Both the position numbers and the translations under genes were made by a program. The notes below the pieces were generated by a model. That model saw nothing but the letters and a program-made list of their open reading frames with translations. It did no database searches and was not told the DNA's origin. DNA of 64,000 bases, taken from contig CAWFBH010000018.1 of the NCBI GenBank assembly GCA_963814035.1, positions 57,397 through 121,396 of the forward strand. The letters run 5' to 3'. Shown here one piece after another: positions 16,199-59,739 of this stretch (its first letter is position 1; each line of letters begins with the position of its first letter). Source of the stretch: an uncultured delta proteobacterium. GTDB lineage: Bacteria > Desulfobacterota > Binatia > Binatales > Binataceae.

Positions 16199-16226
16199 TG
16201 GCTGAAGAGGGGCGCGCAATCCATTT

Positions 16227-16324: not shown

Positions 16325-16362
16325 GGACAACATGACGACTTGATGTGATGGACGATTAAACA

Positions 16363-17923: not shown

Positions 17924-17944
17924 ATATTTCTTTCTTGCTCCCTC

Positions 17945-18038
17945 GTCCCTCTGCCCCTCCCCCTATGATCGGGGGAGGTGTCCCGGCGCGATTTTCGCCA
18001 TGGCTGCGGGCGAAAATCGTGCAGGGACGGAGAGGGAC
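17945..18038. repeat. Multi-branch palindromic element
   Basis: Outer GTCCCTCT/AGAGGGAC stem enclosing CCTCCCCC/GGGGGAGG and CGATTTTCGCC/GGCGAAAATCG hairpins. Confidence 0.7.
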
Positions 18039-18067
18039 CTCAGCTCTGGATTCTTTGCCGCGCTGCG

Positions 18068-18200
18068 GACCTAACCCCCGCCCCCTTCCCCTGAAGTGGA
18101 AGGGGAGAAGAATCGGCAGCGATGCCCAGGCTATTGCTATGAGATCGAGGTCTTCTCTGGTCCCCCTTCCACTTCAGGGGAAGGGGTTAGGGGTTAGGTC
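18068..18200. repeat. Inverted-repeat doublet of the CCCTAACCCC-CCCCTTCC type
   Basis: GACCTAACCCC...CCCCTTCCCCTGAAGTGGAAGGGG is mirrored at 18162-18200. Confidence 0.8.
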
Positions 18201-18253
18201 TGCCCGCTCCTGCGATCCCCTCCCACCTCTGCTACTGTCTGTGGCCTGACCCG

Positions 18254-19333: not shown

Positions 19334-20659
19334 TCGAACTCAAGAGCAAACGCGTGATGGTGGTCGGGCTCGGCGTGAGCGGACGCGCCGCCGCGCGCTT
19401 CCTCGCCGGCCACGGCGCCGCACTGCTACTGACGGACAAGAAAGCCGACCTCGCGACGGATGCGCTTCCGGCCGGCGAACTGCACCTCGGCGCGGAAAAC
19501 GCGGCATGGCTCAAGGGCATTGACCTCGTGGTCACCAGCCCCGGCATCCCGCGCGATTCGATCTTCCTGCGCGAGGCGCAGCAGCGCGGCATTGCGGTGG
19601 TTGGGGAACTGGAGCTCGCGTATCACTTCGTGAAGGCGCCCATCATCGGCATCACTGGCACCAACGGCAAGAGCACGGTGACGACGATGGTCGGCGACAT
19701 CCTGAGGGCGGCCGGCAAGAATGTTTTCGTCGGCGGCAACCTCGGCACCCCGCTGATCGAGGCCGCGGAGCATGACGTGGATGCGCTCGTCATCGAGATT
19801 TCCAGCTTCCAGCTCGAGTGGATCGATAAATTTCGCGCGCACGTCGCGATTCATCTGAACCTCACCGATGATCACTTCGAGCGCTATCGCGACCTCGAGG
19901 ATTACGGCGCCGCGAAGGCGCGCCTGTTCGAGAATCAGGGCGCCGGCGATTTCGCGATCCTCAATCGCGACGATCCCAACGTGTGGAAGCTGCGCCTGGC
20001 GATGCGCTCGCGCGTCATCGGCTTCGGCCTCTCGGCTGCATCTCCCGGTGGCGATGCGATCTGGACCGATGACAAGCAGCTCTACTTCGATATCAACCGA
20101 AGGCGTGGGCGGATCGACCTCGCGCAGTTCAAGCTGCCGGGAAAGCACAACCTGGCAAATGCGATGGCGGCGGCCGCGGCGGCGCTCGCGATGGACATCG
20201 AGCCGCTTGCGATCGAAGAGGGCCTCGCGCGCTTCAAACCGCTGAGCCATCGCATCGAAATGGTGCACGAATGGCGCGGCATCAAGTTCATCGACGACTC
20301 GAAAGGAACCAACGTCGGTGCGGTGGTCGAAGCCCTCGAGGCGATGAGCGCGCCGGTCATCCTCATCGCCGGCGGGTTCGACAAGGGCGGTGACTATGCG
20401 CCACTGCGAAAGCCGCTGATGGAAAAAGTCAGGCTGGCGATCTTTCATCGGAGCCGCGCGCGATAAAATGCGCGCCGCGCTCGATGGTGCCACGCGGATC
20501 GAGGTGGTGGAAAAACTGGCCGACGCGGTGACCCGCGCGGCGGAGGTGGCGGTCGCTGGGGACACGGTGCTGCTTTCGCCGGCATGCTCCAGCTTCGACC
20601 AATTCAAGGACTATGCGGAGCGCGGTAACTTATTTCAAAAGCTGGTTCGGGCGCTTTGA
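19330..20659 (+). CDS. murD: UDP-MurNAc-L-Ala-D-Glu ligase; frameshift near 20445
   Basis: [42 protein letters not shown]. Confidence 0.95.
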
Positions 20660-21762
20660 GGCGGTAAGTCATCGGCGCCCCGACCCATGGTTGTGGCTGC
20701 CGGCGATGGCGCTGCTGATGCTGGGCTGCCTGATGGTGCTCAACACCACCTATTTCATGAGCCAGGAAAAGACCGGCGACGCCTTCCACTTTTTCAAGCT
20801 GCACCTGCTCCATCTCGGGGCCGGCCTCGTGATGCTGATGGCGCTCTCGCAATTCTCGCTGCGCGGTTTGCGGCGCCTCGTGTTTCCACTCCTTGTCATC
20901 TCAATCGCGATGCTGCTGCTGCTCTATGTTCCCCATCTGGGAATCGTGCGCGGCGGCGCGCGCCGATGGCTGCGGCTCGGCCCCTACGTATGCGAGCCGG
21001 TGGAGTTCGCGAAACTCGCGCTGGTGTTTTTTCTCGCGGATTTTTTGAGTAAGCGCCAGGAGCGCATGCGGTTGTTCGAGCAGGGGCCGTTGCCCGCGTT
21101 TCTCATCGTCGCGCCCATCGCGCTGATGATTCTCAAGCAGCCTGACCTCGGCAACACGGTGATGATCGCGCTGGTACTCTTCGCGATGTTGTATGCGGCC
21201 GGCGCGCAGATGAAGCATCTGGGCATGGCGGGCGGCGCGGCGCTTTGCATCCTGGTGCTGCAAACGATGGAGAAGGCGTACCGGATGCGGCGCGTCACCG
21301 CGTTTTTGCATCCATGGGAAACCGCGCAGGGTGCGGGCTTCCAGCTCATCCAGTCATTCATCGCGCTTGGCGCCGGTGGCGGATGGGGCGTCGGCCTCGG
21401 CGAAGGGCGGCAGAAAATGTTCTACCTGCCGCAGGCGCACACCGATTTCATTTTCGCCGTGGTGGGCGAGGAATTCGGGATTCTGGGCGGCGTGGTCGTG
21501 GTCGCGCTTTTTTGCATGATACTTTTTCGTGGGATGCGCATCGCGCAGGACGAACCCGATTCCTTTGCCAGCCTACTGGCCGTAGGACTTACCGCCAGCC
21601 TCTCGTTCCAGGCGCTCATCAACATGGCGGTGGTGATCGGGATGATTCCGACCAAAGGATTGCCATTGCCGTTTTTGAGTTACGGAGGCACGGCGATCAT
21701 GATGTCGATGGCAGCGCTCGGCGCGCTGCTGGCACTCGGCCGCCGTCCCGGCGGTCAGATAG
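20613..21762 (+). CDS. ftsW: Peptidoglycan polymerase FtsW (start and stop approximate)
   Basis: [37 protein letters not shown]. The ORF read-through past 21762 is most likely an indel artefact. Confidence 0.93.
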
Positions 21763-21771
21763 AGCAGTTCG

Positions 21772-22863
21772 ATGAAAGTGATCATCGCCGGAGGCGGAAC
21801 GGGAGGACATCTGTTTCCCGCCGTCGCGCTGGGCGAGGAACTGGTGCGCGAGCGTCCCGACACCGAGGTGCTCTACGTCGGCACGCGCTACGGCTTCGAG
21901 GCGAAATGGCTGCCGAAGACCAACTATCGTTACGAGTTGTACGATGTACACGGATTGCTCGGCGGGCGCGGCGCGATGGCGCGGGTGAAATCGATCGCGG
22001 AGCTCGTGAAGGCAATCGTCCTCGCGCGCGCGACGTTGAAGCGATTCGCTCCCGACCTGGTCGTGATTGCGGGCGGCTATGCCTCCGCACCGATGGGGCT
22101 CGCGGCGATTTTGTCGCGGACGCCGCTCGTCTTGATGGAGCAAAATACTACGCCGGGTTTTTCCAACCGGATGCTGTGGCGCTTCGCCAGAAAAATCTGT
22201 GTCGCCTTCGAAGCGAGCGCCGCGCATTTCAGTCGCGCAAAAGTGGTGGTGACCGGGATTCCATTGCGTTACCAGCCGCTGGCTGACCGGAGGCCGATTT
22301 CGGACAGTCCACTTCAAATCCTTGTTTTAGGCGCGTCGACCGGGGCACATCGTCTCAATTTAGGCGTCCTGAACGCTTTCAAAATCTGGAGAAATAGTGT
22401 TATAAAGTTTGCGGTCACCCATCAAACGGGCGAGGCGGATGAGGAGCTGGTGAGGGCGGAGTACCAAAAGCTGCCGCTGAAGGCGGACGTGATCGGGTTT
22501 ATAGACGATGTTCCGGGCGCATTGAGCCGGAGCGATCTCGTCGTCGCGCGCTCCGGCGGCGGCACCGTCACCGATGTTGCGCTGGCCGCCCGTGCGGCGA
22601 TTTTTGTGCCGTATCCGTTTCATCGCGATCGCCAGCAGTTTCACAACGCGCGCGTCATCGAAGGCGCGGGCGGCGCGATCATCGTCAATGACGATGACAA
22701 CCTCGGCGCGAACCTTGCGCGTGAAATTGAGCGGCTTGGGTCGAATCCGAAACTGCTGCGCGAGATGGGTGACAAGGCGCATGGCGCGGTACCATCAAAC
22801 GCCGCGCAGAAAGTTGCGCAAGTATGTTTCGATGTTGTTGAGCGCCGGAGCGTGACCCCGTGA
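21772..22863 (+). CDS. murG: Undecaprenyl-PP-MurNAc-pentapeptide GlcNAc transferase
   Basis: GGGTGGHLFP, GGYAS, EQN, RSGGGT, QFHNA. Confidence 0.96.
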   Translation: MKVIIAGGGTGGHLFPAVALGEELVRERPDTEVLYVGTRYGFEAKWLPKTNYRYELYDVHGLLGGRGAMARVKSIAELVKAIVLARATLKRFAPDLVVIAGGYASAPMGLAAILSRTPLVLMEQNTTPGFSNRMLWRFARKICVAFEASAAHFSRAKVVVTGIPLRYQPLADRRPISDSPLQILVLGASTGAHRLNLGVLNAFKIWRNSVIKFAVTHQTGEADEELVRAEYQKLPLKADVIGFIDDVPGALSRSDLVVARSGGGTVTDVALAARAAIFVPYPFHRDRQQFHNARVIEGAGGAIIVNDDDNLGANLAREIERLGSNPKLLREMGDKAHGAVPSNAAQKVAQVCFDVVERRSVTP

Positions 22864-24284
22864 CGCAATCGTCTTCGACATCGCTGCTCAATCGCCAGCG
22901 GCGGTTGCACTTCATCGGCATCGGCGGTGCCGGTATGAGCGGAATCGCCGAGCTGTCGTTGCGCCTCGGCTTCGCAGTCAGCGGATGCGATCTAAAGGAT
23001 GGCCGGGTAACCGCGAGACTCAAATCGCTCGGCGCCGAAATCGACACCGGTCATCATGCCGCGCACATCAAGCCCGAACTCGATGCGGTGGTAATTTCTT
23101 CCGCCGTGAAATTTTCCAATCCCGAGGTTGCGCGTGCTCGCGAGATGAAGATTCCGGTCATTCCGCGTGCCGAGATGCTCGGCGAGCTGTTGCGGATGGC
23201 GCGGGTCGGGATCGCCGTCGCGGGTACCCACGGCAAGACGACCACTACCGGTCTGGTCGGCCTCATCCTCGAAGAGGCGGGGCTCGATCCGACGGTCGCG
23301 ATCGGCGGGAATCTGCGCTCCCGCGGGAGCAACGTCCGCCTCGGTCGCGGCGATTACATGGTGGCCGAGGCCGACGAGAGCGACGCGTCATTTTTGCTGC
23401 TGGTGCCGACGCTCGCGATTGTCACCAACATCGACGCGGAACATCTCGATCATTATGGAAACATCGATCGCGTGCGCGATGCGTTTTTAAGCTTCATCAA
23501 TCACGTTCCTTTCTATGGCGCGGCGGTGCTGGGCATCGACAGCGTCAACGTGCGCGGACTGCTCCCGTCGATTCGCAAGCCGGTTGTCACTTACGGCATC
23601 GCGCCCGACGCGGACTTGCGCGCCGAGAAAATTGTCATCGATGGCCTCTCGACGCGGTTCGAAGTGGTGCGCAAGGGTGAAGTTCTTGGCGCGGTGACGA
23701 TTCCGACTCCGGGTGTGCATGTCGCGATGAATTCGCTTGCCGCGATCGCGATCGCCCTGGAGTTGGGCATCAGTTTCGAGGTCGCGGCGAAAGCGCTGGC
23801 GAAATTTTCCGGCATCAGCCGCCGTTTCGAGATCAAGGGCGAGGCCGCCGGCCGCATCGTCATCGACGACTACGCGCATCATCCTGAGGAAGTGAAGGCA
23901 ACGCTGGCGGCCGCGCGCGCGGCATTCAAGCGCCGCATCGTCGCGGTGTTCCAGCCGCATCGCTATACCAGGCTGCGCGATTTGTTCGATGGATTTTTAA
24001 GCGCGTTCGATGACGCCGATATGCTTTGCCTGATGGATATTTATTCCGCCGGCGAGGATGCGATTCCGGACGTGTCGTCGCATCGATTGTACGAGGCCAT
24101 CCTGAAACGCGGCCATCTCAATGTGAGATACCTCGGCGGCCTCAAGGGCACGGCGCAGAAGCTCGCCGACCTGACGATGCCGGGCGATGTGGTGCTGACG
24201 CTTGGCGCGGGCGATATTTATCAACTGGGCGACCAACTGCTTGCGGAACTTGGCGTTGAGCGAAAGACGCATGAGCAGGCTTGA
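22860..24284 (+). CDS. murC: UDP-MurNAc-L-alanine ligase
   Basis: GIGGAGMS, GTHGKTTT, EADESD, DDYAHHP, FQPHRYTR. Confidence 0.97.
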   Translation: MTQSSSTSLLNRQRRLHFIGIGGAGMSGIAELSLRLGFAVSGCDLKDGRVTARLKSLGAEIDTGHHAAHIKPELDAVVISSAVKFSNPEVARAREMKIPVIPRAEMLGELLRMARVGIAVAGTHGKTTTTGLVGLILEEAGLDPTVAIGGNLRSRGSNVRLGRGDYMVAEADESDASFLLLVPTLAIVTNIDAEHLDHYGNIDRVRDAFLSFINHVPFYGAAVLGIDSVNVRGLLPSIRKPVVTYGIAPDADLRAEKIVIDGLSTRFEVVRKGEVLGAVTIPTPGVHVAMNSLAAIAIALELGISFEVAAKALAKFSGISRRFEIKGEAAGRIVIDDYAHHPEEVKATLAAARAAFKRRIVAVFQPHRYTRLRDLFDGFLSAFDDADMLCLMDIYSAGEDAIPDVSSHRLYEAILKRGHLNVRYLGGLKGTAQKLADLTMPGDVVLTLGAGDIYQLGDQLLAELGVERKTHEQA

Positions 24285-25174
24285 TGATGAACTGCGTGAT
24301 GAATTTCGGGAGCGGCTCAAAGTGAACCAGTCACTCGCGGAATTCACTTCGTTTCGCATCGGCGGTCCGGCGGATCTGCTGGTTACCGTTGAGAGCGAGG
24401 CCGAGCTGATGCGCGCCAAGGCCGCGGCGCATCGCGCGGGCGTGCCTACTTTTTGCCTTGGTCATGGGACTAATTTGCTGGTCAGCGATCGCGGCATTCG
24501 AGGCCTGGTGATTCGGCTCGGCGAGGGATTCAACCAAGTCTCCATCGACGACGTGAAGGTTACCGCCGGTGCGGGCGTGGATTTTGGCGAATTGGTGGAA
24601 GCGGTCGTTGAGCGCGGCCTCGAGGGCCTGGAGTTCGGCGAGGGTATTCCCGGCACCGTCGGCGGCGGTCTGGTGATGAATGCGGGTGCATTCGGCGGCG
24701 AAATCGCGCGCGTGGTCAAGCTTGTTCATGGTGTGACCGGGGAGGGCGAAGCCCGCGCGCTTGCTCCCGACGAAGTAAACTTCGCATATCGGCGCACCAA
24801 TCTTCCCGCGCACTTCGTCATTACGCGGGTTGACTTCGAGTTGCATTATGGCGATCGCGATGAGTTGCGCGCGCGTGTGATGGAGGTTCGAGCCAAGCGC
24901 GCATCGCGCCAGCCGCGCGACGTTCCCAATGCGGGATCGATTTTCAAAAATCCTCCCGGCAACTTCGCGGGCCGTTTGCTCGAGGCTGCCGGGATGAAGG
25001 GTCATCGCATCGGCGGCGCGGCGATTCTCGGAGCAGCACGCTAATTTCATCGTCAATCTTGGTGGTGCGCGCGCCGACGATGTTCGCGCACTCATCGAGT
25101 TGGCGCGCGCAAAAGTTCGAGAGAACAGCGGGATTCATTTGGAGACCGAAGTGAAACTGGTTGGCGAATGGTAG
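24271..25174 (+). CDS. murB: UDP-N-acetylenolpyruvoylglucosamine reductase; frameshift near 25030
   Basis: FRIGGPA, GTNLLV, GIPGTVGG, MNAGA, GSIFKNP. HANF and LETEV lie in the shifted frame. Confidence 0.95.
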
Positions 25175-25300
25175 GCGCGATGAAGCTGGACGCACGTTGA
25201 TAAACGTGGATTTATAAAGATAGTAGTGGATACTGGGGCGACGGCGCCCGACTGACAGCGCGCGGGGCGCTATCAGGTTGGCGGGGTAGCGGGAGTTGAG

Positions 25301-26131
25301 GTGGCGGTGGCGGCGGCGAAGAAAAAGAAGACTGAAAGCGCATCGGGCTGGAGTCCGCGGTTGGCGGGCGTGCTGCTGTGCGCTTTTTTCGTTCTCGGCG
25401 TGATGACCGGTTTCAGCGAAGCCGGCCGCCGCGTCGCTCTGCGAACGAAAAATCTGCTCACGACCTGGACCGATCGCACGCTCGCGAAGCTCGGTCCGTT
25501 TCGCCATGCCGCCGATACGTTCGATCAGAGCATCGCGCCGATTGAGGTATTGCTGAAACTGAAACATCCCGCGTCGATGCCGTCTGCCTCGGGCGCCGAC
25601 GAACTTTCTCGCGCGCACGACGCTGACGATCCGATCGCGATCATCGAACGTCATGACGGCTTCTATGCGCTGCTGGCGCGGCGGTGAAATTCGCGGGCCG
25701 GTCTCGCCCGCCCAGCAGCCCGATCTCCCGATCATGAGCGGACCCGGAGTCGAGAGCGCGAGAGCGCCCGAGCTCTGAGCGATGCCGCGATTCTGGTCCG
25801 CGCTGAGGCGCAGATGTCGAGCCTCGTTTCCGAAATGCGCATCGATAACGACGGCACCGCCTCATTTTATCTCGATCGCGAGCGGATGGCGGTGGTGGTC
25901 GATCTGGATCGGCAGGCGGTTGAATTGCCGCGCGCGCTCGATGTCCTCAAGCAGTGGCAGGGGCGCGAGCGCCTGATCGCGATGCTCGATATGACCACGC
26001 CCGACATGGCGGTGGTGCGACTCAAGACCGATTTGCCAGCGCTCAAAAAGCGGCCTTCCACGATCGCGCGAACGACAGTCGCGGAGCCGGCGCGAGTCAG
26101 CATCGCGGAGCGCGGGGCGGTGGTGCGATGA
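25301..26131 (+). CDS. ftsQ: Divergent FtsQ/DivIB-like protein; frameshifted
   Basis: Basic N-terminus plus TM, PIAII and DLPIMSG-like segments, LDMTTPDMAVVR C-terminus, position just before ftsA. Confidence 0.65.
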
Positions 26132-27348
26132 GGAACATCGCTCGCAGCCCTCGACGTCGGCACCAGCAAGGTCTGCGCGATCGTCGCCGAGGTGCCGGTC
26201 GAAAATGAGATCGCGGTGCTCGGTTACGGCGTCGCACCGTGCGCCGGGCTGCGCAAGGGCGTAGTTGTCAACATCGACGCGACAGTGGAAGCGATTCGTG
26301 CCGCGGCTGAAGAAGCCGAGCGCAGCTCGGGCATGCGCATCGGTTCGGTTGCCGTCGGAGTCGCGGGCGCGCACATCCGCGGCCTCAATAGTCATGGCAT
26401 CGTTGCCGTGCGCGGTGGCGAAGTTGGGTCGCGCGATCTCGATCGCGTGATCGATGCCGCGCGCGCCGTCGCGATCCCGCTCGATCGCCAGGTACTGCAC
26501 ATCCTGCCGCAGCAGTTCGCGGTGGATGATCAGGAAGGGGTGCGCGATCCAATCGGGATGGCGGGGGTGCGCCTCGAGGCGCGCATCCATATCGTCACCG
26601 CCGCGCAGAGCTACGAGCGCGAACCTGACCAAGTGCTGCGAGCGCGCGGGGGTGACGCCTTCGGAGCTGGTGTTCGAGCCGCTCGCCTCCGCCGATGCGG
26701 CGCTGTTTCCTGAGGAGCGCGAACTGGGAGTGGCGTTGCATCGATATCGGCGGCGGCACCACCGACATCATCGTGTTTCATGGCGGCGCGGTGATGCATA
26801 CCGCGGTGCTGCCGATCGGCGGCAATCATCTTACCAATGATGTCGCGGCGGGCCTGCGCACGCCGGCCGCCGACGCGGAGAAACTCAAGATCGATTACGG
26901 CGTCGCGACCAGCCTGGTGGTGCGCCGCGATGAAACGGTGCAGGTGCCGGGAGTCGGCGGGCGCGAGCCGCGCATTATCGCGCGCCGCATCCTCGCGGAG
27001 ATCATCGAGCCGCGAATGGAAGAGATCTTCGCGATGGCGCAGCGCGAGCTGATGCGCTCGGGGGTCGCCGACAGTCTCGCCTCGGGACTGGTACTGGTCG
27101 GCGGCACCTCGCTGCTCGAAGGAACGCAGGAACTCGCGGAACGCGTCTTCAATCTTCCGGTGCGGCGCGGACTGCCGACGAATTTGAAAGGAATGCCTGA
27201 AGAGCTGATGAAGCCGATGTACACCACGTCCGCGGGCCTGTTGCTGTATCAGGCGGCATCGCGCGGGATGGGCAACGGTTCGGCGCGGTCGCGCAAGATC
27301 GGGCGGCTGCGCGCGCGGCTCTCAGATTGGGTAAGAGATTTTTTTTAG
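26128..27348 (+). CDS. ftsA: Cell division protein FtsA; frameshifted
   Basis: ALDVGTSKV, GLRKGVVVNI, DPIGMAGVRLE, IDIGGGTTD, C-terminal amphipathic LSDWVRDFF. Confidence 0.95.
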
Positions 27349-48921: not shown

Positions 48922-49695
48922 ATGGCCAAATTCGACTGGAACGAAACCAAGCGGCAGATTGTCGAGTCTCAAGCCTGGCAATCGATCTTCCGCCATGGCT
49001 ACGAGGACACCCCGCGCAACCGCATCCTGATGGTGTCGGGCAACATCTGGTTGCATCTGCATCCCTCCAAGGTGCAGAAGCATACCGTTCGCCTGCGCTT
49101 CACCTGGTGCATGGGCGGGATCACCTTCCTGCTCTTCATGGTGACCGTCATCACCGGCGTCTACCTGATGTTCTATTATCGGCCGACCGCCGAATACGCA
49201 TACGCGGACATGAAATATCTCGAATTCGACATGCCGTTCGGGATGCTGATGCGCAACATGCATCGATGGGCCGCGCACGGGATGGTCATCGCGGTCTGGC
49301 TGCATATGTTCCGCGTGTTCATGACCGGATCGTATAAACCTCCGCGCGAGTTCAACTGGGTGGTCGGCGTCATCCTGCTGGTGTTGACCCTGCTGCTCTC
49401 GTTCACCGGATACCTGCTGCCCTGGGATCAGCTGTCGATATGGGCGGTTACCGTCGGATCGAACATGGCGCGCGCCACCCCGCTGTTAGGACACGGCGGC
49501 CCGTTCCATGAGGTGATGGGCGTGAATCCGATTTACGATGCGCGCGCATTTATCTTCGGCGGCGCGGAAATCGGACCCCATACGCTGTTGCGCTTCTACA
49601 TCCTGCACTGCATCTTCTTCCCGCTCATCGCGAGCTTGTTCATGGCGGTGCATTTCTGGCGAATTCGCCGCGACGGAATGTCGGGGCCGCTCTAA
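48922..49695 (+). CDS. Cytochrome b6-type subunit of a cytochrome bc complex
   Basis: WCMGGI (heme ci Cys), four heme b His ligands with b6-like 14-residue spacing in helix D, TGYLLPWDQ. Confidence 0.92.
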   Translation: MAKFDWNETKRQIVESQAWQSIFRHGYEDTPRNRILMVSGNIWLHLHPSKVQKHTVRLRFTWCMGGITFLLFMVTVITGVYLMFYYRPTAEYAYADMKYLEFDMPFGMLMRNMHRWAAHGMVIAVWLHMFRVFMTGSYKPPREFNWVVGVILLVLTLLLSFTGYLLPWDQLSIWAVTVGSNMARATPLLGHGGPFHEVMGVNPIYDARAFIFGGAEIGPHTLLRFYILHCIFFPLIASLFMAVHFWRIRRDGMSGPL

Positions 49696-49715
49696 GCGGG
49701 GTTGCGGACGGGACT

Positions 49716-49859
49716 ATGGGTGAATTGTTCTCAGGATTGCTGCGCATGGGTATCGTGCGCGTTCTCTTTGTGCCGATCGTGATGGGCCTCATCATGTATG
49801 GATTATGGGTGTTGGCCGCTCCGCCCAAGGACGAGGACGATAATCACGCGCAAAGTTAG
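49716..49859 (+). CDS. 47-aa single-TM peptide inside the bc operon
   Basis: MGELFSGLLRMGIVRVLFVPIVMGLIMYGLWVLAAPPKDEDDNHAQS fills the gap; below the ORF-track cutoff. Confidence 0.65.
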   Translation: MGELFSGLLRMGIVRVLFVPIVMGLIMYGLWVLAAPPKDEDDNHAQS

Positions 49860-49880
49860 CAGTCGCGCAGAGGATTGATC

Positions 49881-50780
49881 ATGGCCGAAGGTAGTGGACC
49901 GATAATGCGAGCGGCGGGCGCTGGCGCCGTATCCGCGGGTGGCGCGGCGCGGCCGATAGCCGCGCCCGGCGGCAAACGTTCCGAGGTTCCGATCAAGAAA
50001 GCCGGGTCGGGAATCGAGGAAAAGCTGCATACTTGGCCGTTCCTGGTCCGCAATGAATTCCTGATGTCGCTGCTAGTGATCGCGGTGCTGACGATCTGGT
50101 CGCTGACCATCAATGCGCCGCTGGAAGAGCCCAGCAATCCGACCCGCACGCCGAATCCCTCGAAGGCGCCATGGTACTTCCTCGGTTTGCAGGAAATGCT
50201 GGTCTTCTTCGATCCATGGTATGCGGGCGTGGTGTTGCCCAGCTTCATCATCGTGGGTCTGATGCTGGTGCCGTATCTCGACATCAATCCAAAGGGGAAC
50301 GGTTACTATACCTTTAAGGAGCGCACTTTCGAGATCCTGACTTTCTTCTTCGGATTCCACATCCTATGGGTCTCGTTCATCATCATCGGGACGTTCTTCC
50401 GCGGCCCCGGATGGAACTGGTTCTGGCCGGGTCAGATTTGGGATCCGCATCTGGTCGAGGCGCTGACCAACGTTGACCTTCCGTACATGTTCGGCTTCCG
50501 CGACTACTTCATGTCCGCGATGTTCGGGCTGTTTGTAATCGGCGCGTACTTCGTGGTCGGTTACATCGGATTTTATTGGTGGATAAGGCGCAGACCCGCG
50601 GGCGATCCATGGTCGGCGTTTCCCGGCGGCGGCAAAGAGATCCTCGAGGCGTGGGGACCGGTGCGCTTCGGGATCACTGGATTTTTGCTCATCGCGATGA
50701 TCGGCGTGGTGGTCAAGATGGCGCTGCGTCACGCGTTCAACATCAAGTACATCCTGGTTACGCCGTGGATTAACATCTGA
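49881..50780 (+). CDS. Cytochrome bc complex subunit IV (cytochrome b C-terminal part)
   Basis: HTWPFLV, APLEEPSNP...NPSKAPWYFLGLQE (PEWY variant), PYLD, RGPGW. Confidence 0.88.
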   Translation: MAEGSGPIMRAAGAGAVSAGGAARPIAAPGGKRSEVPIKKAGSGIEEKLHTWPFLVRNEFLMSLLVIAVLTIWSLTINAPLEEPSNPTRTPNPSKAPWYFLGLQEMLVFFDPWYAGVVLPSFIIVGLMLVPYLDINPKGNGYYTFKERTFEILTFFFGFHILWVSFIIIGTFFRGPGWNWFWPGQIWDPHLVEALTNVDLPYMFGFRDYFMSAMFGLFVIGAYFVVGYIGFYWWIRRRPAGDPWSAFPGGGKEILEAWGPVRFGITGFLLIAMIGVVVKMALRHAFNIKYILVTPWINI

Positions 50781-50795
50781 GACCAAAACATCTGA

Positions 50796-50972
50796 GTGTT
50801 CTTCCTGGCGAAAACTCTCGAAGCGATTGGCTGTGTCGATGTGCTGTTCGCATTGTATGTCGGCATTACCCAGCCGCACGGGATGGGGCGTGAGTTCGAG
50901 ATTACCGGGGTCGGGATTCTGATTTTCATGGTGGGCGTGGCGATCGAGCGTTACTTTGGCGAGCAACTATAA
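50796..50972 (+). CDS. 58-aa two-TM peptide inside the bc operon
   Basis: GTG start, FFLAKTLEAIGCVDVLFALYVGIT...GVGILIFMVGVAIERYFGEQL; fills the gap. Confidence 0.65.
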   Translation: MFFLAKTLEAIGCVDVLFALYVGITQPHGMGREFEITGVGILIFMVGVAIERYFGEQL

Positions 50973-51015
50973 AAGATTTCGGCGGAAGGTTCGTTCCGTG
51001 GCAGGTGTGAAGTAG

Positions 51016-53925
51016 ATGGCTGGCAGACCGGGACTCGATCCCATCGAAGAGGGGAAATCGTTCAGCGCGCTTTTCGTACTCATGATCGCCGTGCTGCTGG
51101 TCAGCGCAATCTGGGCAATCTGGGACGACAATATTTCGCGCCGGCCGTGGAAGGAATACCAGGTCGAGTTCGATCGCCTCGCCTACAACAAGTACATGAA
51201 GGATGTCGCCGATGAGCAAAAGAAGCTCAACGACAATCCCGAATACGTGAAGGACGAAAAGGACCTCACCGAGGCCGAGCGCCAGCTCAATTCCGGCGAG
51301 ACTCAGCGCAAGCTCGATGAGCTCAAGGCCTCGGAAGTCAACCTTAAGAACATCGCCGACGACAAAGACCAGGCGGTCCGCTTCACCAAGTCGATGCTCA
51401 CCGAGCGCATGTATGACTACAATCATGCGATCCAGGTCAAGGAAGATGCGGCCCCAATCTGGAGCGACATTCAAAAGCTCCAGAAGGAACTTAACGGTGA
51501 AAATGCCGCCTCCGACAAGGCCAAGAAGGATCTCCAGGACGTTAAGGACGAGGTCGACAAGATCAATTCCCAGGTCACCGACCTGACCGACAAGCTGAAG
51601 GTTCTGACCAAGACCCGCGACGACCTGACGGACAAGGCCGACACCTACATGATCCCGATCAAGTTCATGGGCCGGGTCATCGCGCGCTATCCCAAAATTC
51701 CCAAGATTCAGCAGACCGCCATCGATGACTTCGATCGCAACGCCTTCGACGAGGCTATCGCGCGGGTCGATCGATGCCAGAGCTGCCACATGGGCGCCGA
51801 TAAAAAGGGCTTCGAAAATGCGCCGCAGCCATTTCGCACCCATTCGAATTTCGACGCCATCATCTTGAAGCATCCGCCGGAGAAAACGGGTTGTACTCCT
51901 TGCCACGAGGGTCAGGGCCCCGCGGTTAATTCGGTTGCGATGGCGCATGGCAACGAGGAGCATTGGGATCATCCGCTGCTCCAGGGCGAGGAGATGCAGT
52001 CGCGATGCATCACCTGTCACATCGACGTCGGGTCGCTGCGCAACAAGGAAGGCAATCAGATCGCGATCAATTGGGTCGATGGCGAGCGCGACTTCCAGCA
52101 GCTCGGCTGCCCCGCCTGCCATCTTGTGGCCGGCTATGAAGACATGCCCAAGATCGGTCCCTTCTTGAAATTGGCGTCGGCCAAGCTCGATCCGTCATGG
52201 ACCGTGCGGTGGATCACCGATCCACACATCTTCCGGCCGCATACTCGGATGCCGAACTTCATGTTCAGCACCGAACAAGCCACGCAGGTTGCCTCCTACA
52301 TCCTGAGTAGCTCGCAGAAGGACGGCGACGAGTGGAGCAAGGCTCATCCGGAGCCTGCCGATCTCCAGGCCGCGCTGACCAATGCGGGCATGATCGAGGA
52401 AGGCAAGGGCCTCTTCGAATCAGTCGGATGCAAAGGCTGTCATGCGATCGAACCGGATGCATACGGCTCGCCGGTCGGCTCCGCTGTGGACTTCAAACCG
52501 AAGGAAACGCGAACCACCAAAGACTTCGCGCCCAATCTCGACAACATCGCCGAGAAGACCGACGCGCGATGGGTCTGGTGGTGGATCAAGGATCCGACCA
52601 ACTATGCGGCGCATCCCGCGATGCCGTCGCTGCGCCTGAATGATCACGAAGCCCTCGCGCTGACGTCATTCCTGATGACGCACGGTCAAAAGAAGGAAGA
52701 TCCGGGCGTCGAGGTAGCGCTGAAGGATCCGGCGAACATCCAGAAGGGCGAAGCGCTGGTGCGCAAATACGGATGCTTCGGTTGCCACGAGATCAACGGC
52801 ATGGAGCATGAGTCGCGCATCGGCGTCGAGCTCAGCACCGAAGGCTCCAAGCACGTCGACGAGTTGTTCTTCGGCAACCATACCGACATCGCCGAGACGT
52901 GGAACGCCTGGATTTACAATAAGTTGAAGAATCCGCGCACCTACCAGACCAAAGATGTCGAGCAGGTGATGCCGAACTTTGACTTGCAGGACACGGACAT
53001 CAAGAACCTGCGGACGTTCATCGCCAGCTTGCATGAAGGCAAGGTACAGGAACGTTATCGCGCCCCGGGCACCGCGCGGCAGGAACAGATCGTGATGGGC
53101 CGGCGCGACGTGAACTATCGTAATTGCGTCGGATGCCACATCATCGAGAATCGCGGAGGTTACATCCGGCGCTTCTATCCTGCGGATCAGCTCAACCTCG
53201 CGCCGCCGATCCTCAATGGCGAGGGCGCCAAGGTGCAGCCGGAATGGCTTTTCAGCTTCCTGCAGGCCCCGACCCCGATCCGGCCGTGGCTCAAGATCCG
53301 GATGCCGACCTTCCACGTTGATAACCATGAAGGTGACACGCTGGTTGACTATTTCACGGCGATGGCCGACCTCCAGGTGCCATTCGTGTACCTCAATACG
53401 AATCTGTTCCCGGCGATGGATTTGGACGCCGGCGCGAAGTTGATGTCCAAGGACTACTTCAACTGCTTCAGTTGCCATCAGCAGGGCGACAAGCATCCGG
53501 AAGGTCCGCCCGAAGGATGGGCGCCCGATCTGGGCCTCGCGCATGCGCGCCTCAACCCGGATTGGATCCCGCTATGGCTGAAGGACCCGCAGGCGATTCA
53601 GCCCGGCACCAAGATGCCGTCGTTCTACCCGGGTGGTCCCGACGACATCCTTAAGGGCAACGAGGAAGAACAGCGCAAAGCGATTCGCGACTACATCTTC
53701 TGGTTCGGCACGCATCCCGGACAGACGCTGCCTTCGCAGGTAGCGAGCCCTGCCGCGGCGCCCAAGCCGTCGGCACCCGAGAAGAAGCAGAAGGTGAGCG
53801 AGCAAAACAAGGTTTTATCAGGAATTTCGTCGGATAACCGGAGGAAAATCAGCAATGAAACGTTTGGCAAAGGTCGCCACGGCATGCGCAGCGGTGGCTC
53901 TCGGATTGACTTTCAGCGCCTATAG
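51016..53925 (+). CDS. Membrane-anchored octaheme cytochrome c with coiled-coil stalk (3' end uncertain)
   Basis: N-terminal TM, long coiled coil, 8 CxxCH motifs (CQSCH, CTPCH, CITCH, CPACH, CKGCH, CFGCH, CVGCH, CFSCH), repeated MP axial-ligand motifs. Confidence 0.92.
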   Translation: MAGRPGLDPIEEGKSFSALFVLMIAVLLVSAIWAIWDDNISRRPWKEYQVEFDRLAYNKYMKDVADEQKKLNDNPEYVKDEKDLTEAERQLNSGETQRKLDELKASEVNLKNIADDKDQAVRFTKSMLTERMYDYNHAIQVKEDAAPIWSDIQKLQKELNGENAASDKAKKDLQDVKDEVDKINSQVTDLTDKLKVLTKTRDDLTDKADTYMIPIKFMGRVIARYPKIPKIQQTAIDDFDRNAFDEAIARVDRCQSCHMGADKKGFENAPQPFRTHSNFDAIILKHPPEKTGCTPCHEGQGPAVNSVAMAHGNEEHWDHPLLQGEEMQSRCITCHIDVGSLRNKEGNQIAINWVDGERDFQQLGCPACHLVAGYEDMPKIGPFLKLASAKLDPSWTVRWITDPHIFRPHTRMPNFMFSTEQATQVASYILSSSQKDGDEWSKAHPEPADLQAALTNAGMIEEGKGLFESVGCKGCHAIEPDAYGSPVGSAVDFKPKETRTTKDFAPNLDNIAEKTDARWVWWWIKDPTNYAAHPAMPSLRLNDHEALALTSFLMTHGQKKEDPGVEVALKDPANIQKGEALVRKYGCFGCHEINGMEHESRIGVELSTEGSKHVDELFFGNHTDIAETWNAWIYNKLKNPRTYQTKDVEQVMPNFDLQDTDIKNLRTFIASLHEGKVQERYRAPGTARQEQIVMGRRDVNYRNCVGCHIIENRGGYIRRFYPADQLNLAPPILNGEGAKVQPEWLFSFLQAPTPIRPWLKIRMPTFHVDNHEGDTLVDYFTAMADLQVPFVYLNTNLFPAMDLDAGAKLMSKDYFNCFSCHQQGDKHPEGPPEGWAPDLGLAHARLNPDWIPLWLKDPQAIQPGTKMPSFYPGGPDDILKGNEEEQRKAIRDYIFWFGTHPGQTLPSQVASPAAAPKPSAPEKKQKVSEQNKVLSGISSDNRRKISNETFGKGRHGMRSGGSRIDFQRL

Positions 53926-54559
53926 CGCGAACGCAGCCGGCGGAACCATCAGCGGCACCGTCAAGTATGACGGCACGCCTCCCGCGCCCAAGACCGTCGA
54001 GGTCACCAAGGACAAGGAAGTTTGCGGCCTGACAAAGCATGTCAACGAGGACCTGCTGGTCTCCAGCGACGGCGGCATCGCAAATGCCGTGGTCGTCGTC
54101 AAGGGCGCCAAGGGCGACTTGAAGCCGGAAACCGTGACCTTCAATCAGAAGGGCTGCCGTTACGATCCCCATGTCCTCGCGTTCCCGGCCGGCAGCACCG
54201 TCAAGATCATGAATGACGACGGCATCCTGCATAACATCCACACCTACTCGACCGTCAATCCTTCCTTCAACGCGGCACAGCCGAAGTTCAAGAAAGAAAT
54301 GGATAAGGTGGTCGAGAAGCCGGAAGCCATCAAGGTCACCTGCGATGCGCATGGCTGGATGCACGGATGGTGGGTCGCGACCGACACCCCGTACTTCGCC
54401 GTTACCGACGACAAGGGCAACTACACCATCAAAGATGTTCCGGCGGGCAACTATACTGTCGAGGTATGGCAGGAGAAGCTCGGCACTGCGGATGAGAAGG
54501 CGGACGTGAAGGACGGCGGTTCCTCGACCGTCAACTTTTCGATGAAGCCCAAGAGCTGA
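53855..54559 (+). CDS. Exported cupredoxin-like protein with carboxypeptidase-regulatory-like domain
   Basis: Signal peptide, HNIH and CDAHGWM (amicyanin-like C-x2-H-x2-M type 1 Cu spacing), VTDDKGNYTI. Confidence 0.8.
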   Translation: MKRLAKVATACAAVALGLTFSAYSANAAGGTISGTVKYDGTPPAPKTVEVTKDKEVCGLTKHVNEDLLVSSDGGIANAVVVVKGAKGDLKPETVTFNQKGCRYDPHVLAFPAGSTVKIMNDDGILHNIHTYSTVNPSFNAAQPKFKKEMDKVVEKPEAIKVTCDAHGWMHGWWVATDTPYFAVTDDKGNYTIKDVPAGNYTVEVWQEKLGTADEKADVKDGGSSTVNFSMKPKS

Positions 54560-54586
54560 TCGCAGCTGCGATATTGTTCGCTTAGG

Positions 54587-54622
54587 CAGGCGCCGGATTC
54601 CTCCGGCGCCTGTTTCATTTTT
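54587..54622 (+). terminator. Intrinsic terminator
   Basis: CAGGCGCCGGA/TCCGGCGCCTG stem followed by TTTCATTTTT, between convergent operons. Confidence 0.8.
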
Positions 54623-54647: not shown

Positions 54648-56111
54648 CTACTGCACGCGAGCGTCGAAGTAGGCGGTCTCGATGTGGCCGGCGCGCTTGA
54701 ACTGCAGGAAGATGCGGTAAAGCCCCGGCTTCGGAAAGCCATAGGGCATCGAGAGTTCCGGCGCGATCTTCTCGGTCGGCATTTTCATCTCGGCCATTGA
54801 TGCCGACCCCGGGCTGTCGGCGCTCGCCATCATCATCGAAGCCATCGAGGCTGAGCCCGAGGGATGGATGTGCGCGAACACGCTCAGGTCATCGCGAATG
54901 ATCTCCGCATGCGCCGCCATTCCCATGTATGGTTCCAGATCATCTGCAGGCGCGCCGCTTTTATCCCGCACTTCGAACTCCAGGATCATTGGAACGTTAG
55001 CCTTGAGCGGCGCGCTGTCGCGTTTCCAAATCAGCTGCGTGCCGTCGGCGAGTATCGAGGTCGTCGTATCGCTCGTCGGCGTCAGGGCCGCAGCGATTCC
55101 TTCCGAATCGTCGCCATGCATCGCGGGTCCCGCGACCGCCGGCAGATCGACAGCTCCAACCAATGTCCACGGGAATCCGTACTTATCGACGACGTCTGCG
55201 AAGACCTCATAGTGGCCCGCCTCCATCGAGGGCAAATCCTTGTCGAAGGTACCCCTCTCGGTGCGATCCGGATGTAGATGCCAGAGGCGATCGAATCCCG
55301 GCGTCCGCAGCAGGAATAGATGCATGATGTGGCCGTGGTCGGGGATCAGAGCCTCGACGCTTTCGTTTTTAAGCCAGATCTCATCGCTCGGGCGGATTGA
55401 TAGTCGATTGCCGTCCAGAGTCGCCGCGCACTTCGGCGATCGGTAAAACTTCGCGAGGGTCGCATAGGCGTTCGCGTCGGCATTCCACCATGTGAATGCT
55501 CCCCAAAAAATCAGTCCGACCAGCACCGTCGTAATCGCCATCGCGCGCCAGCCACGGCGACGGTATGCGGATGAAACTTCCGCACCGGGTGCGATGCGCG
55601 ATTCGCGAGCCGCAGCGCCTACGATCGAGATCGCGCCGATTGCGAGGCCAATCGCCAGCACCAGCAGCAAAGCGCCGAGTGCTTTCGGCATCAGGAGAAT
55701 GGCCTGCCCGAACGATGCGACCGGCACCGACAGCTCGGCGGGGCCGCGCGTGCCTTTCACGTTGAGGAGGACACGCAACGATCCGTATTCCATCAGCCAT
55801 AGGCTCGAGGTGAAAAATCGCGGGTCGGTCTTCGATTGCTTCGCGACATCGGGAACCGGCACGTACTTCGAGCCGGCGCCGGTCAGTCGCGCGACCGCGG
55901 TGGTGATCTCGCGCACATCGTCGGAGTTGGTGCGAACCTCAACTTCCGCGACGCCCGGAATTACTTGCGGCACTCGTATTGTGACGAAGAGATGATACGG
56001 TCCGGCGTCGCCCTCATAGAAGACATCCGGGCTGCCGACATGCGCCGATGCTGGATGCGCGGACGCGATCAGCATCATCAGGACCGCGAGAAATGTGAGC
56101 CGCCGCTTCAC
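54648..56111 (-). CDS. Exported, membrane-anchored His/Met-rich putative copper/metal-binding protein
   Basis: Signal peptide ending ASA-HVGS (N-terminal His), two TMs, DHGHIMHLF, WHLHP, YMGMAAH, FAHIHP, Met-rich tract. Confidence 0.7.
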   Translation of the reverse strand: MKRRLTFLAVLMMLIASAHPASAHVGSPDVFYEGDAGPYHLFVTIRVPQVIPGVAEVEVRTNSDDVREITTAVARLTGAGSKYVPVPDVAKQSKTDPRFFTSSLWLMEYGSLRVLLNVKGTRGPAELSVPVASFGQAILLMPKALGALLLVLAIGLAIGAISIVGAAARESRIAPGAEVSSAYRRRGWRAMAITTVLVGLIFWGAFTWWNADANAYATLAKFYRSPKCAATLDGNRLSIRPSDEIWLKNESVEALIPDHGHIMHLFLLRTPGFDRLWHLHPDRTERGTFDKDLPSMEAGHYEVFADVVDKYGFPWTLVGAVDLPAVAGPAMHGDDSEGIAAALTPTSDTTTSILADGTQLIWKRDSAPLKANVPMILEFEVRDKSGAPADDLEPYMGMAAHAEIIRDDLSVFAHIHPSGSASMASMMMASADSPGSASMAEMKMPTEKIAPELSMPYGFPKPGLYRIFLQFKRAGHIETAYFDARVQ

Positions 56112-56124
56112 GTTCGAGCTCGAG

Positions 56125-57328
56125 CTAACGCTGAACCTTGCGCATCCAGTTTCCGAGGGCCATTCCGATCGAGCAAAAGATGATTGCGGTTATGAGGGCC
56201 GCCGCCATCCCGCCGTAGAAGGCCGCCTGGGTCTTGTCCATCCGCGCGAAATGATACGGGTTGTAGAGGACGTTTGCGGCATCGAAGTAACCGAAGTAGG
56301 TGGTCCCGAAGATGCGATTGCGTGCAAGCGGCGACATCAGAAAATCCGCAAACGGCCACTGCGCCGCGATGAAGACCGCGAGGTACACGCATCCCGCCGC
56401 GATGGCTGATTTCAAGTTGCCCCATCCCTCGCCCAGGCGATGACGAAGGAGGTCGAGGGCGAACGCCGGCACGATCAGCAGGGTCGGGAACCATAGCGGA
56501 ATCATATGCGTGATGTGCTGGTAAACCGGACCGAGCTTCGGCTCGGCGGGGAACAGCGGGAAAATCCACAGGAACGCGAGGAAGCCCGCGGTGTAGATCG
56601 CCGCCATCGTAGTCGCCGGCCACTTCGATTTCGAAACGCACGAAAGCGCCATCAGCACGAGGGGAAAGGTGCTCGCCATCGTGCGATAGAACTCGCTGCT
56701 ATGCATCAGGCCGACCCACGTCGATTCAAGCGCGAAGAGCGCCGCGCCGAAAACCTCGACCCCGCCAACGTAGAGCAACAGGCGGTCTAGCTTCCGCTGG
56801 TACTCTCCCGAGGCGCGATTGAGTTGCGCGCACACCAGCACCATCGCGCCGAGGCTGATCATCGCCTCGCCAATCGCGAGCATCGAATGAGGCAGGCTGA
56901 CGATTTTCACGTCGAGGCCGTAAGCGTTATGCCACCAGTTGTCGAACGGCGCCGAGGTCAGCATCGCGAACGCGCCCCACGTCGCGATGAAACATCCGAG
57001 CGGTCCGCGAAAGCCCCAGATCGAGACCGACTGATCTTTCATCTCGCGCGAAGAGCCGAAGGTCGTGGCGAGGATCGCATAGCCGCATGAGATGCCGGCC
57101 AGCACTCCCGCGAGGTAGACCATCATGTGCGCGGGGGTCCAGAAGGTGTCGCGTCCGATCGAGATGTGCCACGAGATATCCCAATACCCGCCGAACGCGT
57201 CGGAGGTCACCGCGGCAGCGAGGCACCATACGTACCACGGGATCGAGGCGACTTGCGCGCGTCGTCGATGCGCGCTCTGCAGCGCGGCTCTCGCGGCCGA
57301 TCGTGATTGGAAAGGCGGCGTTTCCCAT
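56125..57328 (-). CDS. Polytopic membrane protein with two D-x3-H-x12/13-H motifs; 5' frameshift
   Basis: WDISWHISIGRDTFWTPAH and FDNWWHNAYGLDVKIVSLPH, many TM segments, GAGGTG RBS before the ATG at 57328. Confidence 0.8.
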
Positions 57329-57354
57329 AAACACCTCGCGAGAAATAGAAACGA

Positions 57355-58182
57355 TCAGCGCTCCGATTTCCACTCCACGATGACATCAGAGTTTAGCGCA
57401 TCGACGACAATTTGTGGTGCAGGCGCGAGGCTGCAGTTATGTCCGCTCACGCACTTGCCGGTCGCGATGTCGAATTTGAAATCCATGCCACGGGCATTCG
57501 ATGATGCCGTCGGTCACCGTCGCGGTGCCGAGCGGCCCCAGCGTATGCGGGCATACGGTGGCATGCGCGAGGAATTTTCCATCCAGTCTCGACGATGCGA
57601 AATCGTCGCCCGCGTTCCTCGATCGTCATCGGCAACCGCATGCGAACCTGATCGAGCGGACCGAGCACGCGGCGTGATGACGACCATTCTGGAGCGCGCG
57701 TCTTTATTGCGTCGAGTTGCGCCTGGCGGCCCGACATCATTTCGACATCTTCATCGTAGAGTCGCGTATAGAGAGCTTTGGAGGAGTTGAAGACCTCGGA
57801 TGCACGATCCGCCGCGAGGCCGGGAGCGAAAAAATCCACCACGATATGGGTCTCGCGATCGCCGACCGGAAACGCATGCGTCCAGACTTCGTTGCCGCGG
57901 CCGGGACCATCCAGCGTCGAGGTGATCCAGCGGCGGCAATCGCGATCGAGCTTCAACATCGATGATGAACATGCGGCGCTCCTCGTAGGGCTGCGACCAC
58001 ACGCGCGCGCGAAAACCCCATTCGCCCGCCTCAATACATTCGATGCGCGCGAAACTGGTCCGATGCAAATATGGTAGATGCTCCCAGTCGATCGCGTTTT
58101 CATAGAGGCGCTCGACGCTGACCGGAAGTTCGCGCCGATAGGTACCGAGGTGCGGGACCTTTCTGTCGAGAGCCTCATTCAT
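57355..58182 (-). CDS. Rieske oxygenase-like protein: non-heme Fe (SRPBCC) domain N-terminal, Rieske domain C-terminal; frameshifted
   Basis: ENAIDWEHLPYLH and EDVEMM, then CPHTLGPL...ECPWHG after frame correction. Confidence 0.75.

Positions 58183-59739
<1,557 letters not shown>

Follow-up and report, generated by a model that had tools for sequence, protein, structure and literature searches.

Within a 64,000-nucleotide stretch of DNA from an uncultured member of the Binataceae (contig CAWFBH010000018.1; hereafter the window), a minus-strand gene spanning positions 56125 to 57328 corresponds to a membrane protein of ~400 amino acids with 10 predicted transmembrane (TM) helices. Two putative metal-binding motifs occur in its first four helices, a module (TM1-TM4) that is very probably homologous to part of PmoC, the C subunit of particulate methane monooxygenase (pMMO), and to the equivalent subunit AmoC of ammonia monooxygenase (AMO). 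We tentatively propose that this PmoC-like gene is the first in a two-gene operon encoding a copper-binding membrane module. Collectively, the features of the two proteins and their relatives point to an undescribed copper-handling system.

According to the portions of the literature on which we draw, the pocket of PmoC and AmoC in which CuC and CuD lie is now considered the active site in the enzymes that initiate methane and ammonia oxidation. The PmoC-like family appears to retain a triad of the CuC type plus another in the position of CuD, and does so in another architecture and with another partner protein. It might therefore offer a natural comparison for the twin site acting alone, as well as a lead on the origin of subunit C. 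No paper on PmoC-like or AmoC-like relatives outside copper membrane monooxygenase (CuMMO) operons, or on the origin of such relatives, was encountered in the literature searched in full text.

Relationship of the membrane protein to PmoC and AmoC

The initial annotation of this DNA regarded the protein as a relative of the CuMMO metal-binding module, and profile comparisons bear this out. When a profile built from 44 family sequences was compared with 177,635 distinct PDB sequences, only five chains were recovered at E ≤ 10, all of them AmoC or PmoC (E values of 2.3e-5 to 0.0044). A separate profile of five actinobacterial relatives, described below, retrieved the same five chains and nothing else. 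For direct comparison, we used real C subunits taken from plasmid records, all carrying the Pfam AmoC domain. The family profile aligned with an initial set of 4 such proteins at 89.7% by hhalign (E 1.8e-6, 115 columns), and with a set of 39 more diverse proteins at 90.3% (E 1.5e-6, 121 columns). In contrast, reversed-alignment controls gave 0.3%, and 20 local column shuffles gave a match in 11 cases, none above 0.6%, and no match in the other 9.

The similarity is also evident without profiles. By tblastn, real C subunits match family genes directly in the window and at many other loci (best E 1.9e-6 over 144 amino acids), where the matches in the window have E values of 3.6e-4 to 3e-3 and all fall within positions 57046 to 57354. 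A tblastn search with the first 97 residues against 7.3 gigabases of plasmid sequence returned 14 records at E ≤ 10, six of which are annotated as subunit C.

Despite this relationship, the family falls below established thresholds for membership. The window protein scores 14.9 bits against Pfam AmoC (cut-off 26.7; E 0.018) and 15.1 against NCBIfam AmoC_BACT (cut-off 319; E 0.01), and neither cut-off is reached. Pfam AmoC is the only family that recurs among the 44 members, with 11 matching at E ≤ 1 (best E 0.0011). We thus consider the PmoC-like family to be a distant branch of the PmoC/AmoC superfamily that has a new architecture and a new partner, rather than a member of the AmoC family. 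Neither protein of the pair has a Pfam or NCBIfam family, and the source names of both are exclusively 'hypothetical' or 'predicted secreted protein'. Likewise, the Atlas clusters of one homolog (P0032) are named only 'hypothetical', and neither the window protein nor P0360 has an Atlas entry.

The A and B subunit genes that accompany the C gene in xmoCAB operons are missing from the window, as the initial annotation had noted. No A or B subunit family emerged among 55 window open reading frames (ORFs) at E ≤ 1e-5 or among 6 further ORFs at E ≤ 0.1, and when real subunits (two of type A and two of type B) were searched against the window by tblastn, the best E value was 4.7.

The architecture differs substantially from that of PmoC and AmoC, which the consulted parts of published descriptions give as proteins of ~250-300 amino acids with six helices. 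PmoC and AmoC belong to an alpha3-beta3-gamma3 complex that has copper at the sites. Averaged hydropathy predicts that the N- and C-termini of the 10-helix family protein are both inside. TM1-TM4 (56821 to 57249, minus strand) form two duplicated helical hairpins, and these align with TM3-TM6 of PmoC and AmoC. The first two helices of PmoC have no counterpart in the family protein, which instead carries six additional helices, TM5-TM10 (56128 to 56793, minus strand). No relative of this C-terminal part was detected outside the family and its actinobacterial kin, and comparison of the C-terminal half with AmoA gave 3.8% by hhalign with a thin profile of 2 sequences. Fifteen family members have N-terminal extensions, in which no Pfam domain was found. 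A fusion ORF at one locus (L039) and long ORFs at three others (L017, L045, and L066) were rejected as frame-shift or overlapping-frame artefacts rather than true fusions.

Motif 1, WDISWHISIGRDTFWTPAH (D31, H35, R40, D41, and H48), is encoded at positions 57127 to 57183 on the minus strand and has the spacing D-x3-H-x12-H. Motif 2, FDNWWHNAYGLDVKIVSLPH (D110, H114, and H128), is encoded at 56887 to 56946 on the same strand and has the spacing D-x3-H-x13-H. Residue numbering follows translation of window:56128-57270:-, and translation of the minus strand yields both motif strings with the sequences and spacings originally quoted. Hydropathy places motifs 1 and 2 at the outer, periplasmic ends of helices 1/2 and 3/4, respectively, and the sites of PmoC and AmoC likewise lie at periplasmic helix ends.

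The spacings by themselves are not distinctive, given that D-x3-H-x12-H and D-x3-H-x13-H each occur 9 times among the 127,996 residues of a six-frame translation of the window. However, the more demanding pattern D-x2-W-H-x12/13-H occurs only at the two motif sites, and the double pattern occurs once. The residues are also conserved across homologs, a check proposed in the initial annotation. In an alignment of 44 homologs with as little as 29% identity, D31, W34, G39, H48, D110, W113, G118, and P127 are invariant, and H35, R40, D41, H114, and H128 are at least 90% conserved. Both regions are covered by 198 of the 269 family proteins that were collected, and all six putative ligands are kept in 196 of those 198. 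The exceptions are one fragment and a protein (P0217) in which three of the six ligands are replaced together (His to Glu, Gln, and Gln), making it a natural loss-of-site variant.

Each motif can be matched to a particular site in PmoC. In the part of a published account available to us (PMC12576850), the CuC ligands are Asp156, His160, and His173, the CuD ligands are Asn227, His231, and His245, and Arg165 is hydrogen-bonded in the pocket. These numbers correspond to spacings of x3/x12 and x3/x13, which are the same as those of motifs 1 and 2. In full-length alignments, D31, H35, R40, D41, and H48 fall on D129, H133, R138, D139, and H146 of the C-subunit alignment, such that motif 1 contains the complete CuC pattern Asp-x3-His-x12-His along with the Arg-Asp that follows. 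The shared W-H, R-D-T, and T-P-x-His residues highlighted in the initial annotation are part of this match. Hairpin 1 alone aligns with the CuC region at 95.9% (hhalign; E 5.7e-9).

The same alignments place D110, H114, and H128 on N200, H204, and H218, and thus the family has Asp where the second site of PmoC has Asn. The initial annotation described both motifs as CuC-like. This description holds for motif 1, including its Arg-Asp, but motif 2 occupies the CuD position and is probably the counterpart of CuD rather than a second CuC site, an assignment based on collinearity, spacing, and topology. Four observations favor this equivalence: the two sites have the same spacing; their residues show no variation on either side; helices 1-4 of the family and helices 3-6 of PmoC show the same order and the same alternation of basic loops with acidic, motif-bearing loops (by one hydropathy method); and, with real PmoC, the alignment continues across motif 2, which happens in just 1 of 30 shuffles. 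Some results weigh against it, and against the twin-site proposal more generally. Hairpin 2 alone matches the CuD region of PmoC at only 0.1% by hhalign, a motif-2 sub-profile has 0 matches in the PDB at E ≤ 10, and the score does not change when the CuD half of PmoC is shuffled.

If motif 2 is indeed the CuD counterpart, then PmoC carries the same pair of sites. The internal duplication noted in the initial annotation is recognizable in the family, where hairpin 1 and hairpin 2 align with each other at 92.4% (hhalign; E 5e-7). The corresponding comparison of one PmoC hairpin with the other gives 2.4%, and therefore the duplication is visible in the PmoC-like family and not in PmoC.

The partner gene and the settings of relatives

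Although the initial annotation considered the membrane protein to stand alone, a second gene adjoins it. This partner gene (54648 to 56111, minus strand) encodes 487 amino acids and begins 13 nucleotides past the stop codon of the PmoC-like gene. In 69 of 80 related loci, the gene immediately downstream, on the same strand, is a partner homolog. The gap between the genes has a median of 4 nucleotides in the 63 pairs for which both ends could be placed, and the genes overlap in 20 pairs. Ten of the 11 copies that lack a partner belong to one clade of 17 in a quick tree. A GC-rich, terminator-like hairpin of 14 pairs with a T run (54584 to 54615, plus strand) lies between the end of the operon and a convergent cupredoxin gene.

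The partner is predicted to begin with a signal peptide and to contain two periplasmic domains, a small one before a pair of TM helices and one of 275 residues after them. The signal peptide (residues 1-23) and the adjoining Ala23-His24 are encoded at 56040 to 56111 on the minus strand, and cleavage is predicted to leave His24 at the N-terminus. Ala23-His24 is invariant in 31 of 31 aligned partners, and a strict pattern detects the N-terminal His motif in 66 of 69 partners, the others being one variant and two disrupted copies. No His is invariant between residues 25 and 144 in the 31 sequences. The TM hairpin (residues ~145-210; 55482 to 55679, minus strand), identified by hydropathy, has a basic loop between its helices. 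Domain 2 (residues 213-487; 54651 to 55475, minus strand) appears to contain tandem YtkA-like repeats and is rich in invariant residues (H259, H261, H264, H278, H280, M398, H401, H414, H416, and M423 in 31 sequences), with seven to eight invariant His. It includes a variable Met/His-rich loop (residues ~420-455; 54747 to 54854, minus strand) in which Met and His make up 17.1% of positions, compared to 5.9% elsewhere (30 of 31 sequences measurable).

For the partner, nothing recurrent was found in Pfam or NCBIfam, and the partner profile gave only one stray match to the PDB (E 0.59). The alignment of repeat a with repeat b (5.5%, E 0.007) is suggestive only, and that of domain 1 with the C-terminal domain of the actinobacterial relatives gives 4%. 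The Atlas clusters of the partner itself are automatically named 'YtkA-like' or 'CopC family'. Its structural neighbors in the Atlas, HMBD and EfeO-type cupredoxin clusters, are leads only (query-side TM-scores of 0.43 and 0.41; cluster-side, 0.65 and 0.50).

Domain 2 also occurs on its own. Stand-alone homologs are present in 57 further plasmid records, or 58 when counting Chondrinema, which matches over the full length of the partner. Their hosts include Hymenobacter, Priestia, Streptomyces, cyanobacteria, and haloarchaea. The partner domain aligns with four stand-alone plasmid homologs at 99.8% (hhalign), and sub-cut-off YtkA matches were seen in all 4 homologs examined. Two of these four loci lie beside genes for a P-type ATPase, HMA, cupredoxin, and metal regulators, and the other two do not.

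There is a gross resemblance between the partner and PmoB. The portion of the literature available to us describes PmoB as having a signal peptide followed by an N-terminal His, along with a pair of TM helices that connect two periplasmic domains, and the predicted layout of the partner is the same. However, the partner has no sequence similarity to PmoB or AmoB, given that it lacks a Pfam match and that hhalign against AmoB gives 2.3%, with the signal peptide alone aligned and a thin profile of 2 B subunits. Its C-terminal part differs as well, being a probable tandem YtkA-like domain with kin in heavy-metal islands. There is also no His-x-His in its N-terminal domain, whereas such a motif in the N-terminal domain of PmoB presumably completes the CuB site. 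The accessible part of a paper on N-terminal-His proteins makes no mention of PmoB or PmoC.

The membrane protein family is large, comprising 2110 clusters at 50% identity (E ≤ 1e-3), and relatives were confirmed at 586 of the 600 matched stretches listed, hence at least 586, in species-representative genomes. Members are encoded on chromosomes and are widespread among soil heterotrophs. The 80 loci derive from Binataceae, from many Acidobacteriota, and from individual bins of Myxococcota, Verrucomicrobiota, and Chloroflexota, and nothing real was matched in a phage collection. One Binataceae metagenome-assembled genome has two near-identical copies of the pair on two contigs (L001 and L002). 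The same pair is found on a plasmid of Chondrinema litorale (40% and 33% identity), and both genes are present in Acidobacteriaceae bacterium KBS 89 (L065). These two cultured carriers make the pair testable.

Clustering of flanking ORFs showed that the partner is the only conserved neighbor across the 80 loci, with no third gene. A gene for a short-chain dehydrogenase/reductase (SDR) is positioned directly after the pair in 12 of 80 loci (e.g., L010, L015, L021, L027, L031, L047, L059, and L066), and perhaps this is an accessory gene of a subgroup.

A different setting is observed for relatives encoded by actinobacterial plasmids. These proteins of 475-496 amino acids, annotated as hypothetical, are homologous to the family over helices 1-7 (99.5%, E 5.8e-23), and all 5 retain both triads and the Arg-Asp without change. 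They differ in their C-terminal part, which has further helices, an extracytoplasmic domain, and a last helix, and they have no separate partner gene. Copper-homeostasis genes surround them at all 5 of the loci examined, which are exclusively from plasmids and therefore represent a biased sample. One set of neighbors includes YHS, CopY-type and TetR regulators, and CcdA; a second includes cupredoxin, DUF5134, HMA, and a P-type ATPase; a third includes a four-helix-bundle copper protein, a CsoR-type regulator, two ATPases, and YHS; and a fourth includes a multicopper oxidase and CcsB/ResB. Genes for DUF5134 recur near the actinobacterial relatives in these copper islands (L088, 6618-7490; L090, 9282-10081).

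Singleton amoC and pmoC genes, such as amoC3 and plasmid singletons, provide another point of comparison. Like the PmoC-like gene, they are C-type genes without adjacent A and B genes, as published for amoC3 and as seen in plasmid records. However, they encode full AmoC members close to the operon copies, whereas the PmoC-like family is remote and has another architecture.

Candidate functions of the gene pair

Judging from sequence features, copper is fairly likely to be the metal bound. The intrinsic features of the two proteins and the contexts of their relatives lean toward copper handling rather than an enzyme. A role in copper uptake, or in copper delivery to cuproenzymes, is a reasonable though tentative proposal, made by analogy with other systems. 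Perhaps the partner captures periplasmic copper at its N-terminal His and at its His/Met sites, and then passes it to the twin sites of the membrane protein. Copper might subsequently enter or cross the membrane to supply cuproenzymes. The pair would then work like CopC-CopD or YcnJ/YcnI, but on a PmoC scaffold instead of CopD.

The excerpts of the literature on which we rely describe YcnJ as having an extracellular CopC His-brace domain that passes Cu(II) to a CopD membrane domain with an essential His. YcnJ also has a YtkA domain and exchanges Cu(II) with YcnI, and a YtkA domain aids CuA assembly according to the same partial sources. The pair resembles these systems in its predicted extracytoplasmic N-terminal His, in its polytopic membrane protein with conserved His residues, and perhaps in a YtkA-like domain. 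YcnJ/YcnI and CopCD are the closest working analogy, and for this reason we favor uptake or delivery. The likeness is incomplete, however, given that the pair has no detectable sequence relation to CopC, CopD, or DUF1775, its parts are split over two genes and occur in another order, and no copper-responsive regulator is nearby. For Acidobacteriota and Binatia, the pair is a candidate system for taking up or delivering copper, and no CopC/CopD family matched these proteins.

Several observations weigh against copper uptake or delivery. Apart from the two periplasmic triads, few polar helix residues are conserved among the 44 homologs, and there is no obvious ion path. In PmoC, CuC and CuD serve as catalytic sites rather than for transport, as described in the portions of the literature at hand. 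The PmoC-like family itself also lacks a copper gene context, unlike the actinobacterial relatives and the stand-alone domain 2 relatives. Specifically, ten copper-homeostasis queries matched by tblastn at only 1 of the 80 loci (a P-type ATPase in L079), and no copper-specific Pfam family was present in 77 flanking ORFs scanned of the 411 within 3 kilobases, where those longer than 900 amino acids were left out. The clustering of flanking ORFs across the 80 loci likewise revealed no conserved regulator. Finally, none of the 31 partners and 44 PmoC-like sequences matched a CopC, CopD, or YtkA family at E ≤ 1.

The main rival explanation is that the pair forms a copper-dependent membrane oxidoreductase, or a minimal two-subunit analog of CuMMOs, which from the sequences alone we consider unlikely. 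The twin CuC/CuD-like sites would activate O2 or oxidize a substrate, the six extra helices would replace PmoA, and the partner would replace PmoB by supplying copper or electrons. In agreement with this possibility, CuC and CuD, which lie ~5.7-8 Å from each other, make up the presumed active site of pMMO and AMO and both can be occupied at once, according to the parts of published reports available to us. Moreover, the Arg-Asp beside CuC is retained, the partner shows the gross layout that our partial source gives for PmoB, and its domain 2 has eight invariant His residues. The SDR gene in 12 of 80 loci and the absence of copper-homeostasis neighbors also fit a metabolic enzyme. However, the comparisons of the C-terminal half with AmoA (3.8%) and of the partner with AmoB (2.3%), both made with thin profiles of 2 sequences, provide no link to the other subunits. 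The N-terminal domain of the partner has no invariant His for a CuB-type site, and no conserved reductase or downstream pathway gene is nearby. In addition, Met/His-rich loops and YtkA-like repeats are hallmarks of proteins that traffic copper, and relatives of both proteins reside in copper-resistance islands.

A bolder version of this idea, which we rate as rather improbable, is that the pair is a widespread and unrecognized copper membrane oxygenase or oxidase with two subunits, belonging to soil Acidobacteriota and Binatia and having a catalytic twin site, and that it represents the ancestral scaffold that gave rise to the C subunit of methane and ammonia monooxygenases. If this were true, then the active site of PmoC would have begun as a duplicated copper-binding hairpin.

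It is quite improbable that the pair serves as a copper-resistance determinant, which would sequester or oxidize periplasmic Cu(I) or move copper outward. Consistent with such a role are the Met-rich loop of the partner and the location of relatives (both the actinobacterial proteins and the stand-alone domain 2 proteins) beside genes for efflux ATPases, CsoR/CopY-type regulators, multicopper oxidase, and TolC/RND proteins. However, resistance genes usually are clustered and regulated, and in only 1 of 80 loci was such a gene close to the family, with 0 of 77 flanking ORFs having a copper-specific Pfam family. The chromosomal location of the family and its breadth among soil heterotrophs (≥586 stretches in species-representative genomes) also do not favor a resistance determinant.

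Least probable is that the likeness to PmoC reflects one short convergent motif in an unrelated membrane protein, or that the sites bind another metal (Zn, Fe, or Mn) or none: the profile match does owe its entire statistical weight to ~26-50 columns around motif 1, scores stay below the Pfam and NCBIfam cut-offs, and Asp/His/His sites are not copper-specific (partially consulted reports link pMMO sites with Zn and Fe), but two independent profiles select AmoC/PmoC alone among all PDB sequences with controls at ≤0.6%, the match extends into flanking helices and reaches motif 2 with real PmoC (versus 1 of 30 shuffles), collinearity with PmoC holds for the second triad, the loop charges, and the order of helices, and the features of the partner and of the relatives indicate copper.

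Reading frame of the window copy and neighboring genes

The initial annotation gave the gene as a single span from 56125 to 57328. These limits are correct, but the span is not one reading frame. Its length, 1204 nucleotides, cannot be divided evenly by 3. The gene ends in a stop codon at 56125-56127 on the minus strand, and the ATG at 57328 is in a different frame than both motifs. The motif frame is open to 57354, and its first start codon after the upstream stop is a GTG at 57210. In homologs of 400 amino acids (e.g., P0001, 93% identical), the N-terminal peptide corresponds to the frame of the ATG at 57328 and the remainder to the motif frame. DNA alignment with the two closest loci (L008 and L009) reveals one extra base near 57262 in the window copy, and this base separates the ATG from the motif frame. 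The insertion can be placed only approximately (57255 to 57265, minus strand) because it falls in a GC-rich repeat. Thus, the window copy is frame-shifted after approximately codon 23.

The frame shift more likely comes from an indel-prone assembly than from decay of the gene. It is improbable, although conceivable, that the window copy is a pseudogene with a real frame shift that yields a truncated product or none. The extra base relative to both L008 and L009 could be taken in this way, as could the fact that the motif frame has no start codon ahead of GTG 57210, a position within TM1. However, frame shift aside, the copy is 93% identical to an intact homolog, and its partner gene is intact. 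Furthermore, other window genes are split in the same manner, which suggests assembly indel errors, and frame jumps also occur in a related record (P0099).

One such split gene is located immediately upstream of the PmoC-like gene. This VanA_C-like gene (57447 to 58182, minus strand) is present as two overlapping frames, whereas the corresponding region of L008 (L008:6080-6700) is one open frame. Pieces of ABC-transporter and cytochrome b genes are separated as well (794 to 3273, minus strand; 48922 to 50777, plus strand). Upstream of the PmoC-like gene, a sigma-70 scan of the minus strand detected nothing that resembles a promoter, and no Rfam family and no tRNA were found.

The gene convergent with the partner gene (53855 to 54559, plus strand) encodes a secreted protein of 234 amino acids with weak matches to plastocyanin and amicyanin, a C-x2-H-x2-M motif, and a C-terminal CarboxypepD_reg domain. 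This amicyanin-like gene follows a cluster (48922 to 53922, plus strand) that encodes the N- and C-terminal parts of cytochrome b and then a 969-amino-acid multihaem cytochrome c with MtrC/MtrF-like and cbb3-type domains. The arrangement is common only to the window and its close relative L009. The cluster, which is next to the blue copper protein gene, may function in respiration or extracellular electron transfer.

Elsewhere in the window, a cell-division and cell-wall (dcw) cluster (14078 to 27345, plus strand) includes genes for a PBP transpeptidase, Mur ligases, MraY, FtsW, MurG, MurC, MurB, and FtsA. Lastly, the gene at 58183 to 59658 on the minus strand encodes an unusually long ketol-acid reductoisomerase of 491 amino acids that scores just under the TIGR ilvC cut-off.

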